A stretch of 64,000 bases of DNA from a virus (lineage: Duplodnaviria > Caudoviricetes). Shown here in pieces: positions 3,582 through 60,955 of this stretch. The position numbers and the translations under genes are program-made. Below the pieces are notes generated by a model that did not search any database, had not been told where the DNA came from, and saw nothing but the letters and a program-made list of their open reading frames with translations. Positions within the stretch are counted from its first letter, which is position 1. Every line of letters starts with the position of its first letter. The stretch spans positions 6,810-70,809 of IMG/VR virus record IMGVR_UViG_2840500688_000001; one strand, 5' to 3'.

Positions 3582-3658
3582 GTGCCTTTAGCTCAGTTGG
3601 TTAGAGCACTCGACTCATAATCGAGCGGCCGTTGGTTCGAGTCCAACAAGGCACACCA
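3582..3658 (+). tRNA. tRNA with CAT anticodon, most likely tRNA-Ile2 (lysidine) rather than Met
   Basis: Full cloverleaf: acceptor GTGCCTT/AAGGCAC, D arm GCTC/GAGC, anticodon stem CTCGA/TCGAG with loop CTCATAA, T arm GTTGG-TTCGAGT-CCAAC, encoded CCA. G1-C72 is paired, so not an initiator; C4/C5 in the acceptor stem as in Ile2. Confidence 0.92.
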
Positions 3659-4732: not shown

Positions 4733-5227
4733 ATGGGGTTTAAGTTAGGGAAAAAATCAAAGAATAATTTAATCGGGGTTCATCCTGATTTAGTTGCAAT
4801 TGTAGAACGAGCCATTGAGATCACTCAGCAAGATTTCACAGTCTTTGAAGGTGTTCGATCAATCACGAAACAAAAAGCCTATTATGCTAAAGGTACATCG
4901 ACCACATTGCATGGTTCCCGTCATTTAATAGGCAAAGATGGCTATGCTCATGCTGTGGACTTAGTACCGCTGATTCATGGCCAACTTCGCTGGGATTGGG
5001 ATGGATGCTATGCAATTGCGGAAGCTGTACGCCAAGCATCGATTGAATTAAAGATTCCTGTGCGTTGGGGCGGCGTTTGGGATAAGTTGCTTTCTGATAT
5101 TCAGGGCATGACAACAAAGCAAGCGCAGCAGGCGTATGTTGATCAACGTATACGTAATGGCCAACGAGCATTTGCGGATGGTCCGCATTTTGAGTTGCCA
5201 GTATCAGCCAAATATCCACAGTTTTAG
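4733..5227 (+). CDS. Endolysin, M15-family (L-Ala-D-Glu peptidase-like)
   Basis: 'GVHPDL', 'FEGVRS', 'SRHL....HAVDL', 'WGG.W', 'DGPHFEL' motifs. Confidence 0.9.
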   Translation: MGFKLGKKSKNNLIGVHPDLVAIVERAIEITQQDFTVFEGVRSITKQKAYYAKGTSTTLHGSRHLIGKDGYAHAVDLVPLIHGQLRWDWDGCYAIAEAVRQASIELKIPVRWGGVWDKLLSDIQGMTTKQAQQAYVDQRIRNGQRAFADGPHFELPVSAKYPQF

Positions 5228-5260
5228 AAACGAATGTAGGCAAAGCAGTAGAAGCCTGCT

Positions 5261-5372
5261 AAGACGGCACTGTAAGAAATGCGCCAACACTTCTTACAGT
5301 AGTCAACTGACAGAACCAGTTAACCCATTGCGCATAAACGCAAGGCCGCCCCCTGCAGGGGCAGTAATTTTA
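5261..5372 (+). ncRNA. Conserved four-hairpin leader upstream of com (copy 1); strand of the functional RNA uncertain
   Basis: AAGACGGC + 10-bp stem 5269-5300 (loop ATGCGCCAACAC), AACTG/CAGTT, TTGCG/CGCAA, GCCCC/GGGGC; same architecture with compensatory changes at 56391-56502. Confidence 0.7.
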
Positions 5373-5382
5373 TCAGGTTAAT

Positions 5383-5514
5383 ATGGAAAGAAAAAAGAAA
5401 GTTTTAACAGAAGTGAGATGTGCAAATTGTAATAAGAAGTTATGTGATGCTGAATACAGCGTATTAAAAATAAAATGTCCTAGATGTAAATCTATGAATA
5501 TTTTAAAGAAGTGA
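5383..5514 (+). CDS. com: Com-family zinc-finger translational regulator, 43 aa (not in the ORF track)
   Basis: MERKKKVLTEVRCANCNKKLCDAEYSVLKIKCPRCKSMNILKK; RCxxCNKxL...IKCPRCK is the Mu Com signature. Confidence 0.88.
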   Translation: MERKKKVLTEVRCANCNKKLCDAEYSVLKIKCPRCKSMNILKK

Positions 5515-5535
5515 GTGCCTAGAGCGCCTAATGTT

Positions 5536-5571
5536 GAATGCCTCGAGCATCAAAATAATGAGGTGTTCATG
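5536..5571 (+). promoter_or_regulatory. Com-binding hairpin plus SD-sequestering hairpin at the methyltransferase start
   Basis: GAATGCCTCGAGCATC (Mu site recalled as GAAUGCCUGCGAGCAUC); GAGCATC can alternatively pair with GGTGTTC, covering SD GAGGTG next to ATG 5569. Confidence 0.75.
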
Positions 5572-6360
5572 AAGAAATATACAAAAGCTCCATTACCATT
5601 TTTAGGCCAAAAGAGAAATTGGCTGCGTTTGATTAACGAAATCAATTTTGATCATATGACTGTGATTGATCTATTCGGCGGCAGTGGCATATTGTCGCAT
5701 GAGATCAAAAGAAATAATCCGAATGCTCGTGTGATTTGGAATGATTTTGATAACTATCAGGAGCGATTGAATCAAATTGAACAAACTGAAGCTTTGCGCC
5801 AAAAGATTGCCAAGGCGTGTAGTGTCTTTGAGAAAGGTACGAAATTAAGTGGGGCAGCCAAAGACGGCATACTTAAATTGATTAAAGAATCTGGTACAAC
5901 AGATTTTATTACCGTGTCGAGTTGGCTTTTATTCTCAGGCAATTATTGCCACTCTTTTGATTCATTGGCCAACAAAACATGGTACATCAGCCCGCCTAAA
6001 AATCCGCTGAATGCCGAGGATTACTTATCCAATGTAGAACGTGTCAGGATGGATTATAAAGAGCTTTTGAGTTTATACCCTGGTCATGAAAATACGGTTT
6101 TTATTGTAGATCCGCCGTACATCATGACCAATCAAACGGGATATTCAGCCAAGAATGATGCAAGGTTTAAGCTTGTTGATGCCATTCATTTATTCAAAGA
6201 ATTGGGATCTAGAAAGGCGGTTCTATTTTCTAGTACTAAATCAGAGTCTGATGAGTTATTGGATCTCATGGATATCAATGTGACAGAGCGCCATTCGTTG
6301 ATTGTGAGCCCAATCCCTGATCGAAAATACGAAGATTTATGCTACAGAATTAATTTCTAA
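5569..6360 (+). CDS. N6-adenine DNA methyltransferase (Hin1523/Hia5-like, mom-position)
   Basis: 'APLPFLGQKR', motif I 'DLFGGSG', motif IV 'VDPPY'; ORF 5515-6360, likely start 5569 after GAGGTG. Confidence 0.9.
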   Translation: MKKYTKAPLPFLGQKRNWLRLINEINFDHMTVIDLFGGSGILSHEIKRNNPNARVIWNDFDNYQERLNQIEQTEALRQKIAKACSVFEKGTKLSGAAKDGILKLIKESGTTDFITVSSWLLFSGNYCHSFDSLANKTWYISPPKNPLNAEDYLSNVERVRMDYKELLSLYPGHENTVFIVDPPYIMTNQTGYSAKNDARFKLVDAIHLFKELGSRKAVLFSSTKSESDELLDLMDINVTERHSLIVSPIPDRKYEDLCYRINF

Positions 6361-52692: not shown

Positions 52693-53005
52693 TTATGTGA
52701 TCAATATTACCAATGGTTTAACGCTCAAAAACATCACAGATAACGAGCCCACCATTATTTTATTCACGCGTAGCCACTGCACATCTTCTAAGAAAATGCT
52801 GCACATGCTCGATGAGTTCAGCAAACGTCATTTACACATTGCATGCGTCAATGTAGACATCAGCCCAAACAGCGTTGGGAAGAACATGATGCACCGCTTC
52901 AATATCAAGGTTGCACCTTCTTTTGTTGTGTTCAAACAAGGCAAAGAGGTGAACCGCGGATGTGGCTACACACAGTTTGTGAATTATATGACGAGTGAAA
53001 TGTAA
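52685..53005 (+). CDS. Thioredoxin-fold protein with degenerate CxxS site
   Basis: 'ILFTRSHCTSSKKM', 'VNVD', 'RFNIKVAPSFVVFKQGKEV.R..G' thioredoxin pattern. Confidence 0.7.
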   Translation: MTSYVINITNGLTLKNITDNEPTIILFTRSHCTSSKKMLHMLDEFSKRHLHIACVNVDISPNSVGKNMMHRFNIKVAPSFVVFKQGKEVNRGCGYTQFVNYMTSEM

Positions 53006-55614
53006 TGAAAATGGAACGCAGTCAGAGAGATGAAGTGGTGCGCCGCTTCATCGCAGAAACAGGGGCAAAGCCTCAAGGCAATGGCAAACGCTATAAAAAT
53101 GGCATTTGTCCAAGCTGTCAGAAAAAGAAATTATGGATATTTGGTGATGATCCGTGGAAGATCCAATGTGATAGTACCACGTGCGGTTATGAGATCTCCG
53201 CACGTGATCGTTATCCAGACATCTTTGAAAACTTTTCTAAACGCTATGCCCATGAAATGGCAGAAGATGGCCGCGCAATTGCTAAAGCATACTTGAGGGA
53301 AGCAAGGGGCTTTAACACCACATTGTGTGACCAATTCACGCAAGAAACGTTTTTTGATTATAGCACAAAAGTTTCCACACCAACGGTGCGTTTTCCAATG
53401 CCAGGGGATGGTTATTGGGAACGTCTGATTGAAAACTTGGAAAAGTTTGAGCAAAAAGCCCACTTCAAAAAAGGCTATTCATACAAAGGATTGGCTTGGC
53501 ATTTTAATGATCTTGATGTGACCAAAATTAATGAATTATGGGTGGTTGAAGGGATCTTTGATGCCATTGCATTAAGACATCACAATATTCATGCCATCAG
53601 TGCCATGAGTGCCAATAACTTTCCTGAACACACTTTAACGCAGATCTACCAAAAGAATCCGCGCTTAAATATTGTGATTGCCTTAGATTCAGACGAGAAA
53701 GGCAAACAGTCCGCCATTAAGTGGTTAAAGCTATGTGAAAAAATAGGATTCTTTTCTGACATCCGTTTGGCCATTACCAATGATGGCGATGATTGGAACG
53801 ATAAGCACATCAAAGAGCAATTAGATGATGAAGATATTGAAACCTATCTTCACCATGGCGCAGTGTTATCCGCAAGATCACCGATGCGCAAAGCATATTT
53901 GATGTATCAGCGCTATGAAAAGCAGCAGTTTTTCCTTGAGTTCAATTTCAATACGTATTGGGTCAAAGTGGATGTGAAGGCGATGCTTGAAGCCATCAAT
54001 AAAAACGATGAGGACGAGGAAACGGCATTTAAATCGTCTTGTACCATCACTGAGATCGCCAATTGTGTTACGAATATTCTGTACGCACAAAAAGAGTTGG
54101 ATACCAATGAGTTATTCTACTTTCTTGAAGTGGTCATGAAGAATAAGCGTAATAAAGATGCTTTTTCACCGAAGCAATTGTCCAGCGCGGGCGAGTTCAA
54201 GGCACGTGTGATGAATACGGTGTCAGGTGCGACATTTACAGGTGAAACAAAGCATTTAGATCAAATCTATCGTGTGAAAACGAGTGACATCAAAGACATT
54301 AGCACGGTGCCATTTTTAGGGTATGCCAAAGAGTTGGGTGCATATATTTTCCCTGAGTTTGCCGTTAAAAATGGCCGTGTCTATAAGCTCAATAAGGAAG
54401 AGTATTTTGAGTTGCCAGGGAACCAAAACATTAAGACAACTTTTTCAATGCCTGAGTTTGATCCAAGCATGGACTACCAAAATACATGGCACCAAGATTT
54501 CATTGATGTTTTTGGCCAAAAAGGATTGACGGTTTTAGCGTTTTGGCTCGGCTCATTATTCGTAGAACAATTGCGTGATGTTTATAAAGGCTTTCCATTT
54601 TTGGAACTCACAGGTGAAGCGGGTGCGGGTAAGTCCACCATTTTGCAATTCATGTGGAAACTCTCTGGGCGTGGTGGTGATTATGAAGGGGTCAATCCCA
54701 ATAACGGCTCTAAAGTGGGTTATTTCAGAACATTATCACAAGTGGCCAACTTGCCAACGGTGATGATTGAGTGTGAAGGCTTTAACTTAGAGGATCTCAA
54801 GTCCTTATACAATGGCGGCTACTTGAGAACAACGGGCCAAAAGAATAATGGCAATAACACCAACAGCCCTAAATTCAGAGGTTCATTGATTTTATCCCAA
54901 AATGAGCGAGCCATTACCGCAGGTTCACGCGATAACTTAATTGCGTTGTTGTCCCGCCTTGTTTATGTGCATTTTGATACGAGCAATCACACCTCTGAGT
55001 CACGCATTAAAGCCCGTCGATTAGAACAAATGTCAATGGATGAATTGTCAGGCTTTTTGGTGGAAGCACTTAAAAATGAAGATGCCATCTTAAAGTGTGT
55101 TCACTCAGTTTTTGAACAAAACAGAGCACGCATTATGGCATTGGAAGAGGTGCAAACAACGCGCATTGGCTTGACGCATGGCTTGATGCTCTCATTGTTG
55201 CAGGCTTTGAAGTTTTTAATGCCCATTCCTGAGCACACGTTGCGTGCAACTGAAGAGTACATTTGCCGCATTGCAATTGAACGCGATATTGAACTTAAAC
55301 AAGATCATCCAATTTTAGAACAGTTTTGGGAGGTGTATGAGTATCTCAATAATGAAGGTTTTGCGGTTAATCATTCCAGAAATGATGAGTATATCGCCAT
55401 CAACTTAAATCAGTTTTATGGATTGGCCGCAGAGATGCGCCAGCAGCTTGATGACATTAAAACAGTCAAAAAGATGCTGCCACACACAAGCAGGCACAAA
55501 TACATTGAGCACAATAAAGTTGTGAATTCTAAGTACAACGATGATGAGTACACAACCAGAGCAGGGAAGGGTTTTGGCTCATTGCGTTGTTATATTTTTC
55601 ATAAAGGTAAATAG
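53005..55614 (+). CDS. P4-alpha-like primase-helicase
   Basis: Zn ribbon 'CPSC...C...TCG', TOPRIM 'VVEGIFDA...ALD.D..G', Walker A 'GEAGAGKST'. Confidence 0.88.
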   Translation: MKMERSQRDEVVRRFIAETGAKPQGNGKRYKNGICPSCQKKKLWIFGDDPWKIQCDSTTCGYEISARDRYPDIFENFSKRYAHEMAEDGRAIAKAYLREARGFNTTLCDQFTQETFFDYSTKVSTPTVRFPMPGDGYWERLIENLEKFEQKAHFKKGYSYKGLAWHFNDLDVTKINELWVVEGIFDAIALRHHNIHAISAMSANNFPEHTLTQIYQKNPRLNIVIALDSDEKGKQSAIKWLKLCEKIGFFSDIRLAITNDGDDWNDKHIKEQLDDEDIETYLHHGAVLSARSPMRKAYLMYQRYEKQQFFLEFNFNTYWVKVDVKAMLEAINKNDEDEETAFKSSCTITEIANCVTNILYAQKELDTNELFYFLEVVMKNKRNKDAFSPKQLSSAGEFKARVMNTVSGATFTGETKHLDQIYRVKTSDIKDISTVPFLGYAKELGAYIFPEFAVKNGRVYKLNKEEYFELPGNQNIKTTFSMPEFDPSMDYQNTWHQDFIDVFGQKGLTVLAFWLGSLFVEQLRDVYKGFPFLELTGEAGAGKSTILQFMWKLSGRGGDYEGVNPNNGSKVGYFRTLSQVANLPTVMIECEGFNLEDLKSLYNGGYLRTTGQKNNGNNTNSPKFRGSLILSQNERAITAGSRDNLIALLSRLVYVHFDTSNHTSESRIKARRLEQMSMDELSGFLVEALKNEDAILKCVHSVFEQNRARIMALEEVQTTRIGLTHGLMLSLLQALKFLMPIPEHTLRATEEYICRIAIERDIELKQDHPILEQFWEVYEYLNNEGFAVNHSRNDEYIAINLNQFYGLAAEMRQQLDDIKTVKKMLPHTSRHKYIEHNKVVNSKYNDDEYTTRAGKGFGSLRCYIFHKGK

Positions 55615-56390: not shown

Positions 56391-56502
56391 AAGACGGCAT
56401 CTAGATCAGCGCACAAACACTGATCTAGATAGCTAACTGCATAACCAGTTATCCCATTGCGCATACACGCAAGACCGCTCCTGGCCAGGAGCAATAATTG
56501 TA
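56391..56502 (+). ncRNA. Conserved four-hairpin leader upstream of com (copy 2)
   Basis: AAGACGGC + 11-bp stem 56399-56430 (loop CGCACAAACA), TAACTG/CAGTTA, TTGCG/CGCAA, GCTCCT/AGGAGC; homologous to 5261-5372. Confidence 0.7.
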
Positions 56503-56514
56503 ACAAAGGTAGTT

Positions 56515-56664
56515 ATGAAAAAGGAATATATCCGCAATAATACGGAAGAAATACGTTGTACACATTGCAACCGCAAGCTTTGTGAGGCAATATATCGGCT
56601 TATTGTAATTAAGTGTCCAAGGTGTAAAACCTTAAATTCACTTAAAAAGGATCCTGAGCGCTAA
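56515..56664 (+). CDS. com: Com-family zinc-finger translational regulator, 49 aa (not in the ORF track)
   Basis: MKKEYIRNNTEEIRCTHCNRKLCEAIYRLIVIKCPRCKTLNSLKKDPER. Confidence 0.88.
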   Translation: MKKEYIRNNTEEIRCTHCNRKLCEAIYRLIVIKCPRCKTLNSLKKDPER

Positions 56665-56678
56665 GAGCGTCTAACTAT

Positions 56679-56715
56679 GCATGCCATGAGCATCTTTAAT
56701 TTGGAGATGCCCATG
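56679..56715 (+). promoter_or_regulatory. Com-binding hairpin plus SD-sequestering hairpin at the methyltransferase start
   Basis: GCATGCCATGAGCATC; GCATCT pairs alternatively with AGATGC overlapping SD GGAG; ATG at 56713. Confidence 0.72.
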
Positions 56716-57501
56716 CGCAAATATCATAAAGCCCCATTACCATTCTTAGGCCAAAAGAGAAATTGGTTACGAAACATTTATGAAATGGATTTCGACAATA
56801 AAACCGTTGTGGATCTATTTGGTGGTAGTGGGATTTTATCTCATGAGATTAAGCGTAATCACCCAACTGCAACGGTTGTATGGAATGATTTTGATGATTA
56901 TCAATCTCGTTTAGATCAATTAGAAAAAACAGAAAGCTTGCGTCAGAATTTACTCGATTTTGGTATGGGTTTAGAAAAAGCTGCACGCATTGATCATGAG
57001 ACCAAAAATAAAATATTATCCATCATTAAAGCATCAGGTTGTACTGATTATTTGACGATTTCTAGTTGGGTATTATTCAGCGGTAATTATTGTCATTCCT
57101 TGGATGAAATTGCCAAAAAGAATTGGTATTTTCGAGTGACTAAAAATCCACTATCTTGTGATGATTATTTAAAAGGTGTGATTCGTGTTCAGAAGGATTT
57201 TAGAGCGTTATTGGCTAAGTATCAGCATAAAGAGAACGTGATTTTTATTGCGGATCCGCCATATATTATGACGAATCAGCAAGGTTATATTCCTGATAAA
57301 AATGATGATAACTTCAAACTCCGTGATGCAATTGCCTTAATCAAAGCCCTTAAAGGGCAGAATGCTATTTTATTTTCTAGCACTAAATCTGAAACGGATG
57401 ATTTATTAGAAGCCTTTGATGTGCCCATCACCAAACGAATGGCTTATCAGGCTTCATCTGGTGAGGGCAGGAAATACACGGAGTTGATGTATGTGATGTA
57501 G
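56713..57501 (+). CDS. N6-adenine DNA methyltransferase (Hin1523/Hia5-like, mom-position)
   Basis: 'APLPFLGQKR', 'DLFGGSG', 'ADPPY'; homologue of 5569-6360; ORF 56677-57501, likely start 56713. Confidence 0.9.
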   Translation: MRKYHKAPLPFLGQKRNWLRNIYEMDFDNKTVVDLFGGSGILSHEIKRNHPTATVVWNDFDDYQSRLDQLEKTESLRQNLLDFGMGLEKAARIDHETKNKILSIIKASGCTDYLTISSWVLFSGNYCHSLDEIAKKNWYFRVTKNPLSCDDYLKGVIRVQKDFRALLAKYQHKENVIFIADPPYIMTNQQGYIPDKNDDNFKLRDAIALIKALKGQNAILFSSTKSETDDLLEAFDVPITKRMAYQASSGEGRKYTELMYVM

Positions 57502-59950: not shown

Positions 59951-60955
59951 TTATCCTAATCTATTTGCAATCTCGGTTGCTGTTGGGTTGTAGTAAATCA
60001 TCAATGAACGTGTATCACGATGACCAATCATTTTTGCTAAGTCTAACACACCTAATTTTCTTGCCAAACGAGTACATGCCTCATGGCGTGAATCATGGAA
60101 AGTTAAATCCTCAATCCCCAAAGCGCGGGTTGCTTTTCTAAATGTTTGGCTCACACTGTCCGAGCTGATATTAAATAATGGTCCACTCATTTTAGGACCT
60201 AATAATCTTAATAGCTCAATGGCACGAGAAGAGAGCGGGACATCACGATTATCATCATTTTTAGTGCCAAAAAGCGTTAGGTATTTATCACTCAGTTTGA
60301 TTTGTTTCCAATCTAGATACGTAATTTCACTTTGGCGCATGCCTGTTTCAATAGCCAATAAGAAAATCAGCCCGACAACCTGTTTTTGTAACGTGGGTTG
60401 TGTGTCTTTAAATTGAAACCATTCCATGAGTTGGGCTATTTCTTCTTCAGAGATTCTGCGGTTACGATGTGGCGGTTCTTTCAATGCACGCAGATCAGTC
60501 AAAGGATTGTGATTTGTCCAGTTCCATTCACGACGAGCCATTTCCACAACTGCACGCACTAAAGATAATTCACGATTCTTAGATGAATTGGCAATAGGGC
60601 GCTGGTCACGCCACTCTGCAATCATGCGGGCTTTTAGCTTCATCAAAGGCACATCTTTTGGAAAATAATCTTGATTCATAAATGCATTAATGCGATGCTT
60701 TTCATTACGAGCGCCTTTTTTGGTGGGTGTGACCTCTTGGGCATAGCGTAACATTGCATCACCCAAAGTTTTGCCTTCATCATAATCTTTCTCTGCGCCT
60801 GTTTTGATTTCACGTTCACGTGTTTCCATCCACATGAGCGCATCTAGTTTAGAAGAAAAGCTTTTTGATTCATTATGCTGCACATAGTTTTTAGTGATTT
60901 TAATGCGAGCTTGATATGAATTTCCGCGTTTTCTAATTGTCCCCATTTTGTTCAC
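59951..60955 (-). CDS. int: Tyrosine integrase
   Basis: 'ETGMRQSEI' (R), 'GTKN' (K), 'FHDSRHEA' (HxxR), 'IGH', 'YY'; adjacent to the att repeat. Confidence 0.95.
   Translation of the reverse strand: MNKMGTIRKRGNSYQARIKITKNYVQHNESKSFSSKLDALMWMETREREIKTGAEKDYDEGKTLGDAMLRYAQEVTPTKKGARNEKHRINAFMNQDYFPKDVPLMKLKARMIAEWRDQRPIANSSKNRELSLVRAVVEMARREWNWTNHNPLTDLRALKEPPHRNRRISEEEIAQLMEWFQFKDTQPTLQKQVVGLIFLLAIETGMRQSEITYLDWKQIKLSDKYLTLFGTKNDDNRDVPLSSRAIELLRLLGPKMSGPLFNISSDSVSQTFRKATRALGIEDLTFHDSRHEACTRLARKLGVLDLAKMIGHRDTRSLMIYYNPTATEIANRLG

Follow-up and report, generated by a model that had tools for sequence, protein, structure and literature searches.

The 64-kb window analysed here, which is part of a 70.8-kb IMG/VR provirus record, carries a small com gene, two Com-type operator hairpins and a DNA methyltransferase gene in close succession (Table 1). 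This arrangement is best read as a self-contained and portable anti-restriction cassette of the Mu com type, in which synthesis of the methyltransferase would be switched on by Com as in phage Mu; we put the probability of this reading at roughly 0.7. The identities of the two proteins, the operator motif, the covariation of the hairpins and the conservation of an inhibitory pairing together with its geometry are observed in the sequences compared. In Mu itself, Com activates translation of mom by binding a hairpin that lies beside a translation-inhibition structure (PMC6483171). The pairing of Com with a methyltransferase is already known and is common in many types of phages, and the window is an ordinary further case of it. 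The window also harbours a second, diverged cassette; the two are referred to below as copy 1 and copy 2.

Table 1 Features of the two com-methyltransferase cassettes in the 64-kb window
Feature	Position	Strand	Description
Structured leader RNA, copy 1	5261-5373	+	113 nt; closing helix around one long and two short hairpins, followed by a GC-rich hairpin
com, copy 1	5383-5514	+	43-aa CCCC zinc-ribbon protein; zinc-finger domain alone, without C-terminal tail
Com-type operator hairpin, site 1	5513-5528 (stem-loop 5515-5527)	+	GA-GUGC-CUAGA-GCGC-C; overlaps the com stop codon
Com-type operator hairpin, site 2	5536-5551 (stem-loop 5538-5550)	+	GA-AUGC-CUCGA-GCAU-C; the site of the earlier note
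Ribosome-binding segment, copy 1	5559-5571	+	UGAGGUGUUC-AUG; Shine-Dalgarno sequence (SD) GAGG at 5560-5563; ATG at 5569
Methyltransferase, copy 1	5569-6360	+	D12-class N6-adenine DNA methyltransferase, 263 aa, motifs FGGSG and DPPY
Second, diverged cassette (copy 2)	56391-57501	+	Leader 56391-56503; com2 56515-56664; hairpins 56656-56671 and 56679-56694; methyltransferase 56713-57501

The Com protein, the methyltransferase and their setting

An open reading frame for a 43-aa protein of the form RCxxCNKxL...IKCPRCK had been reported at 5383-5514 in an earlier note on this DNA, and it is indeed present there. Its translation product (MERKKKVLTEVRCANCNKKLCDAEYSVLKIKCPRCKSMNILKK) contains two CxxC pairs and is, judged by its sequence, a Com-family regulator. 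It matches the Pfam profile PF10122 (Zn_ribbon_Com) at 34.5 bits, against a cut-off of 22.9, and also PHROG 6417 ('translational regulator'); PHROGs 6417 and 13819 match Com. In an alignment with the zinc finger of Mu Com 15 of 35 residues are identical (43%, E 1e-8). The cysteines C13, C16, C32 and C35 are invariant among 10 homologues and align with C6, C9, C26 and C29 of Mu Com. For the C-terminal tail of Com, absent here, a possible need in RNA remodelling has been suggested (Nowacka et al., PMC6483171), a point that speaks against the switch proposed below. The description of the gene as unannotated is correct for the raw sequence, and metagenome gene callers skip it, but it does not apply at NCBI, where near-identical proteins of Wohlfahrtiimonas chitiniclastica have already been named 'Com family DNA-binding transcriptional regulator'.

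The protein encoded downstream was identified as an adenine methyltransferase in profile searches (PF02086, E 5e-10; PHROG 56 also matched), which agrees with the proposal that such an enzyme stands behind the Com-type operator. Its motifs FGGSG and DPPY are invariant in an alignment of the copy 1 enzyme with two relatives. [quoted passage not shown] The copy 1 enzyme shares some features with the N6-adenine methyltransferases that occupy the mom slot, namely an FxGxG motif I, a DPPY motif IV and a position downstream of com, at a size of 263 aa compared to about 265-280 aa.

For comparative analysis 13 distinct cassettes were collected from Wohlfahrtiimonas, Ignatzschineria, a Neisseria species and metagenomes. 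The earlier note had named translation from the upstream GTG at 5515, instead of the ATG at 5569, as an outcome that would speak against it. The comparison favours 5569: the ATG aligned with it is the only start common to all 13 cassettes, and the N-termini of the methyltransferases (M-x-K/R-Y-x-K-A/S-P-L-P-F-L-G-Q-K) align from this position. GTG 5515 was rejected as a start. The 18-codon extension that it would add is not conserved, and upstream in-frame extensions in the relatives are short, unconserved or closed by a stop; in five relatives the frame stays open for at most three codons upstream, and in one the 19 open codons contain no alternative start. A second in-frame start codon lies two codons before the shared ATG in nearly all cassettes, as GUG-UUC-AUG in copy 1 (5563-5571) and as AUG-CUC-AUG in most others. 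Its closeness to the SD makes it an improbable start, and it has probably arisen because this segment is complementary to the operator arm GAGCAUC, which can mask the ribosome site (see below).

Within the methyltransferase family com was found only with the proteobacterial branch, while relatives from Bacteroidota and Campylobacterota are without com. Com is thus a separable regulatory add-on. The methyltransferase relatives of Bacteroidota, Campylobacterota and Bacillota that lack an upstream com (L133-L162) show 30-41% identity. Upstream of L145 there is a long (TCAA)n tract and upstream of L157 a poly-C tract; these two genes may instead be expressed in a phase-variable manner. In one metagenomic relative (L246, 1534-1731) the gene directly after the methyltransferase matches the Pfam family Acb2_Tad1_hairpin, an anti-CBASS/anti-Thoeris sponge family, and this neighbour suggests that the cassette can sit in an anti-defence island.

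The copy 1 cassette lies in a prophage of W. chitiniclastica; NCBI holds identical or near-identical proteins from this species, and the closest genome locus is that of Wohlfahrtiimonas sp. G9077 (98%). It splits the lysis module of this prophage and is located between a gene for an M15-type endolysin (4733-5227) and genes for a DUF2644 membrane protein and an Rz-like spanin. Downstream of the spanin follow HNH, TerS, TerL, portal, ClpP-type protease, HK97-fold capsid and lambda-type tape measure genes, a set that marks the phage background as HK97-like. The earlier assignment to a non-Mu phage resembling HK97 and lambda is thus supported by the structural module and the tape measure. A Mu DDE_2 transposase was not found in the window either, which is weak evidence since the control genomes were silent too. 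A blastn search of a phage collection with the copy 1 cassette gave no match. A tRNA-Met gene (CAT anticodon) was observed at 3582-3658 inside the prophage, ~1.1 kb upstream of the endolysin gene.

A second prophage with P2-like gene order starts at ~30.3 kb. It harbours copy 2, which was absent from the earlier note, between its primase gene (53005-55614) and the genes on the side of the integrase (~59951-60955). The com2 product of 49 aa matches PF10122 at 38.1 bits. The copy 2 methyltransferase is close to that of a relative designated L008, which is 58% identical to the copy 1 enzyme.

Operator hairpins and leader RNA

The operator proposed in the earlier note, GAATGCCTCGAGCATC, is located at 5536-5551, where AUGC (5538-5541) and GCAU (5547-5550) form a hairpin of 4 bp. 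Alignment with the Mu com-mom region, which had been suggested as a check, showed that the Mu operator reads GAATGCCTGCGAGCATC (AF083977). The Mu sequence given in the earlier note was exact, including the one additional loop base of Mu, and site 2 is identical to it at 16 of 17 positions. A further hairpin, which had not been noted before, lies 23 nt upstream (site 1); as in copy 1, it overlaps the com stop codon in several other cassettes. Both consist of a 4-bp stem with a closing C-G pair and display CC(N)2GAG in the loop. In experiments the motif of Com was defined as CC(N)2-3GAG within the loop of a hairpin that has a C-G closing pair, and Com proteins select such RNA in vitro (Nowacka et al. 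2019, PMC6483171). Both hairpins of copy 1 fit this motif, and binding of Com to them is predicted.

Comparison of the cassettes showed that the site-2 hairpin is conserved both as a structure and in its position. In an alignment of 14 sequences, comprising the 13 distinct cassettes and a near-duplicate (L131), it is 98.2% paired with compensatory changes in three of its four pairs, compared to 0-61% pairing for slid controls. Its covariation score of 0.547 (0.310 in shuffled alignments) was reached by none of 500 shuffles, although these shuffle statistics overstate the support because the compared sequences are related. Site 2 begins 28-36 nt and site 1 begins 52-59 nt before the ATG in the 13 cassettes, and the spacers between com and methyltransferase measure 35-75 nt, with 54 nt in copy 1. 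The 15-base operator pattern occurs once in the 64-kb window against 0.01 expected. The looser structural hairpin motif is not rare, with six occurrences on the plus strand of the window against ~3.5 expected. What lies beyond chance is the combination of two hairpins 23 nt apart directly behind com, at distances of 31 and 54 nt before the ATG of the methyltransferase, with these offsets repeated in 13 cassettes.

Of 61 distinct Com loci in IMG/VR, 51 carry one or more canonical hairpins where com meets its cargo gene, and 14 have two strict hairpins 20-25 nt apart, most often 22 or 23. The raw count from a scan of IMG/VR with the exact operator (at least 115 loci) was set aside, since hundreds of chance matches are to be expected by our own estimate; a Com ORF was found upstream in 18 of 122 matches.

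Directly 5' of com a folded leader RNA is present. An RNAalifold consensus of 10 cassettes, the AT-rich set, contains 30 pairs, 18 of them with compensatory changes. A covariance model of this leader, R1, scores 119 bits at the copy 1 leader and 105 bits at the copy 2 leader, and in Wohlfahrtiimonas and Ignatzschineria it finds one leader per genome, in every case at the cassette. Scores of 15-34 bits, which are weak but always directly upstream of com and on the same strand, were obtained at more than 20 GC-rich com loci, in Neisseria and in the Moraxella phage Mcat1; SuMu is marginal and a search of Mu with R1 scored no leader. An independent RNAalifold analysis of 15 GC-rich examples recovered these helices again; compensatory changes were present in 13 of 19 pairs. 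The leader thus accompanies com genes in very different phages; examples elsewhere are found at L258 2196-2301 and L256 1501-1612, and in L197, L189, L220 and others around 2365-2490. It contains no CC(N)2-3GAG hairpin. An Rfam scan of 5100-5700 returned no family, the only match being AS-pc01 at chance level (21 bits against a gathering score of 79). The GC-rich hairpin at 5348-5362 was flagged by a terminator scan, and was rejected as an intrinsic terminator because its U-tract is not conserved among relatives.

The ribosome site and the proposed switch

The sequence GGUGUUC (5562-5568), situated just before the start codon of the methyltransferase, is an anti-sequence with which the 3' arm of site 1 or that of site 2 can pair. 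Pairing of GAGCAUC with GGUGUUC had been proposed as the hairpin that buries the SD; the arms are found at 5545-5551 and 5562-5568. Comparative analysis singles out this helix as the conserved one of the competing folds. Extended to 10 bp, it joins the loop and 3' arm of site 2 to positions -7 to +3 of the methyltransferase gene and is 82.9% paired in the 14 sequences, compared to 18-51% for slid partners. Covariation within it is limited to two double-change pairs (C-G to U-A and A-U to G-C); its score was reached by one of 500 shuffles, which again overstates the support because the sequences are related. Several relatives possess a perfect 10-bp inhibitory stem that includes the AUG, such as CAUGAGCAUC/GAUGCUCAUG in L008, and in copy 2 the inhibitory helix CAUGAGCAUC/GAUGCCCAUG likewise takes in the start codon. 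Complementarity to positions -7 to -1 is the same for the 3' arms of site 1 and site 2, with 79 of 91 positions matching in each case. The site-1 3' arm of copy 1, GAGCGCC, pairs with GGUGUUC at seven of seven positions, and the site-1 arms fit their own partners better than shuffled partners in all of 2000 trials, a figure that is inflated by relatedness.

Positions 5500-5600 were folded, as the earlier note had advised. The segment folds with a z-score of only -1.0, and its minimum-energy fold is not the GAGCAUC/GGUGUUC hairpin but a pairing of the 5' operator arm UGAAUGCCUC with GAGGUGUUCA, i.e. the SD. This fold was rejected as the inhibitory structure of the family because it is 66% paired in the relatives and its score was matched by shuffles (418 of 500). 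In copy 1 the ribosome site has four alternative upstream partners, whose pairings differ by a few kcal/mol. The calculated energies are -15.3 kcal/mol for the 5'-arm helix with site 1, -13.3 kcal/mol for the site-1-arm helix enclosing site 2, -13.3 kcal/mol for the 3' end of com (5494-5505) paired with 5559-5570 in the presence of both hairpins, and -10.6 kcal/mol for the GAGCAUC/GGUGUUC helix with site 1, compared to -5.7 kcal/mol for the open state with both operator hairpins. The closed states of the free RNA are thus 5-10 kcal/mol more stable in the folding model, so that the ribosome site is predicted to be occluded by several near-equivalent partners.

To mimic bound Com, both hairpins were forced in the folding, and accessibility was scored over positions -13 to +3. 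The predicted accessibility of the ribosome site increased in 10 of 13 cassettes. Copy 2 is predicted to be a much cleaner switch than copy 1, its accessibility rising from 0.22 to 0.58. In copy 1 accessibility was not raised (0.31 to 0.25) because the 3' end of com (5494-5505) still pairs with 5559-5570. In the folding model copy 1 is thermodynamically the least clear switch of its family, with no clean opening of the ribosome site predicted.

The following mechanism is proposed. Late transcripts would carry, in order, the folded leader, com, the 54-nt spacer with its two hairpins and the methyltransferase gene. In free mRNA the segment from SD to AUG (5559-5570) would pair with nucleotides of the operator hairpins, the family-conserved pairing being that of the loop and 3' arm of site 2 with -7 to +3, and the 3' arm of site 1 being able to pair there too; methyltransferase translation would thereby be kept low. 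Once accumulated, Com would bind the CC(N)2GAG loops and lock both short hairpins. With their arms held in the hairpins the ribosome site would be freed, and the methyltransferase would be made late in infection, when its methylation of phage DNA would protect against host restriction. Taken over from Mu by analogy are the binding of Com, the activation, its timing and the role against restriction. This mechanistic reading is the best available one, resting on the Mu analogy and the comparative RNA evidence. An extended version of it is possible but rather doubtful. It holds that the cassette is a two-site cooperative switch unlike that of Mu, in which either 3' arm can pair with the anti-sequence and both hairpins need Com, and that an undescribed leader with a three-way junction travels with com across Mu-like, P2-like and siphoviral phages and adds control.

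Control of the methyltransferase mainly by translational coupling is an unlikely alternative to the Com switch, although copy 1 offers some features that would suit it. When the 3' end of com is included in the folding, a 12-bp helix of AUGAAUAUUUUA with UGAGGUGUUCAU becomes the outer helix of the minimum-energy structure. Such a helix could be opened by ribosomes translating com: on reaching the stop codon (5512-5514), which site 1 overlaps in copy 1 and several other cassettes, they would unwind 5494-5505 and the site-1 pairings. The methyltransferase would then be made in proportion to com translation, and the part played by Com would be small or of another kind, for instance in autoregulation or mRNA stability. 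However, the com-3'-end helix is specific to copy 1 and not evident in relatives (L246 and others), simple coupling has no need for spacers of 35-75 nt and conserved hairpin offsets, and the operator motif is exactly the one selected by Com proteins in vitro (PMC6483171). Com might also act at another level or with the opposite sign, by repressing, stabilising or antiterminating the transcript via the hairpins and possibly the leader. The automatic NCBI name points to transcription, and the conserved leader ends in a GC-rich hairpin directly 5' of com. This leader is, however, devoid of a Com motif, whereas the hairpins lie between com and its cargo at a fixed distance from the AUG, with arms complementary to the ribosome site, as fits translational control of the Mu type; action at another level is accordingly considered quite improbable.

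Hardly to be expected is a decaying or silent cassette, whose likeness to the Mu operator would be inherited while the switch no longer works in the prophage. Activity of the methyltransferases Hia5 and Hin1523 was undetectable in their native Haemophilus hosts, even after treatment with mitomycin C (PMC3299994), and copy 1 is the weakest predicted switch of its family, both of which would be in line with a remnant. Yet both ORFs of copy 1 are intact, six other Wohlfahrtiimonas proviruses carry them with 97-99% conservation and an identical operator, and all catalytic and zinc-binding motifs are present.

Related systems and significance

The earlier note proposed that a whole com-mom switch had been transplanted into an HK97/lambda-like phage. 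The cassette is mobile and does sit in an HK97-like phage, but its architecture is not identical with that of Mu. Nor is such a transfer remarkable, since several phage types commonly carry Com-gated methyltransferases for which annotations exist, with published or annotated pairs in both Mu-like and P2-like phages. In FluMu, Pnm1, a Haemophilus aegyptius island and Pseudomonas phage B3, com is followed by an adenine methyltransferase gene in place of mom, and possible Com sites 5' of hin1523 have been noted before (Drozdz et al. 2012, PMC3299994). The mom-slot methyltransferases of Mu-like prophages are broad-specificity anti-restriction enzymes that are toxic when unregulated (PMC3299994). 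Relaxed target specificity, for any A not followed or preceded by A, is a hallmark of Hin1523, Hia5 and Nma1821. In the P2-like Burkholderia phage KS5 the 'Com translational regulator' gp21 is encoded beside gp20, an N-4/N-6 DNA methylase (Lynch et al. 2010, PMC3091744). Searches with tblastn detected Com in many P2-like Burkholderia and Ralstonia phages, with related matches in AP3, Mana and Ralstonia phage RsoM1USA. Com-like genes (PF10122) of Pseudomonas precede genes for LlpA bacteriocins, tailocin cargo, lytic enzymes and levansucrase (Ghequire et al., PMC6240691).

Compared to Mu com-mom (AF083977, 35768-36602), the window shares a CCCC zinc-ribbon Com, a near-identical operator hairpin, a predicted structure over the ribosome site of the cargo gene and a cargo that, by analogy, would be a DNA-modifying anti-restriction enzyme. 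It does not hold a com-mom operon in the strict sense. Its cargo is an AdoMet methyltransferase and not Mom, the acetamido-adenine modification enzyme; its phage has an HK97-like module, while Mu is transposable; and its com and cargo genes are separated by the 54-nt spacer, whereas com of Mu overlaps the cargo gene. The window has two upstream hairpins 23 nt apart, whereas a second motif in Mu lies in the loop of the inhibitory hairpin. The inhibitory pairing of the window re-uses operator nucleotides, while Mu forms a separate adjacent CCCAC/GUGGG hairpin. Mu Com carries a 27-aa tail that the Com of copy 1 lacks, and a folded leader precedes com in the window while R1 finds none in Mu.

The systems of Hin1523, Nma1821 and Hia5 (FluMu, Pnm1 and the H. 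aegyptius island) and that of SuMu resemble copy 1 in having com, a short spacer and a methyltransferase of ~265-280 aa with DPPY and FxGxG motifs. The window enzyme was set beside Hia5 and Hin1523 by motifs, size and gene order, the sequence comparison having been made with SuMu_53. The Hin1523, Nma1821 and Hia5 genes occupy the mom slot of Mu-like elements, whereas copy 1 splits an HK97-like lysis cassette. KS5 offers the parallel of Com beside a DNA methyltransferase in a non-Mu temperate phage, and copy 2 of the window is likewise found in a P2-like prophage. The KS5 methylase, however, is of the N6_N4 class (PF01555) and is overlapped by com, and KS5 Com has 60 aa including a tail. The com genes of the llpA type in Pseudomonas share the use of Com as a portable regulator, often unannotated, before varied and potentially harmful cargo, but this cargo is not DNA-modifying and no operator analysis was reported (PMC6240691).

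A further case in a non-Mu phage is that of Moraxella phage Mcat1 (L258 2140-2500, KR093625), which harbours an unannotated com (from ~2336), two Com-type hairpins and a homologous methyltransferase gene; the cassette is located between terminase and coat genes. The 'hypothetical protein' AKI26999.1 of this phage (2140-2331) overlaps the leader RNA (R1 match 2196-2301) and is probably a false gene call. On the chromosome of Neisseria sp. Ec49-e6-T10 (L256, 1501-2253) the leader and a Com homologue are found ahead of, and overlapping with, an ORF whose product is not a methyltransferase. It matches the DNA-packaging protein gp3 and a phage lysozyme fragment, and is followed by a spanin-like ORF; Com may thus gate other late genes as well.

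Cargo was classified in 77 IMG/VR com loci with a downstream ORF, a sample that is biased towards the query. D12 methyltransferases were found in 35 of these, N6_N4 enzymes in at least 31, C5 enzymes in four and Mom in three, so that ~70 methyltransferases stand against three Mom proteins. The five cargo ORFs from IMG/VR that are closest to the window group with its methyltransferase and not with Mom.

The basic biology of the Com switch is already established. What is modestly new is the occurrence of two phased operator hairpins, the absence of a tail from Com and the re-use of operator nucleotides in the inhibitory pairing. By analogy with Mu, the window would provide one more well-resolved case of a temperate phage that keeps a potentially toxic, restriction-evading methyltransferase silent until late. 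The Com cassette appears as a mobile unit that lands in unrelated phage backbones, with two diverged copies in neighbouring prophages here. For annotation it is relevant that gene callers, as a rule, fail to report com genes and their operator hairpins. The comparative set, with its covarying stems, 23-nt phasing and operator-re-using pairing, could guide a first structure-function study of Com outside Mu.
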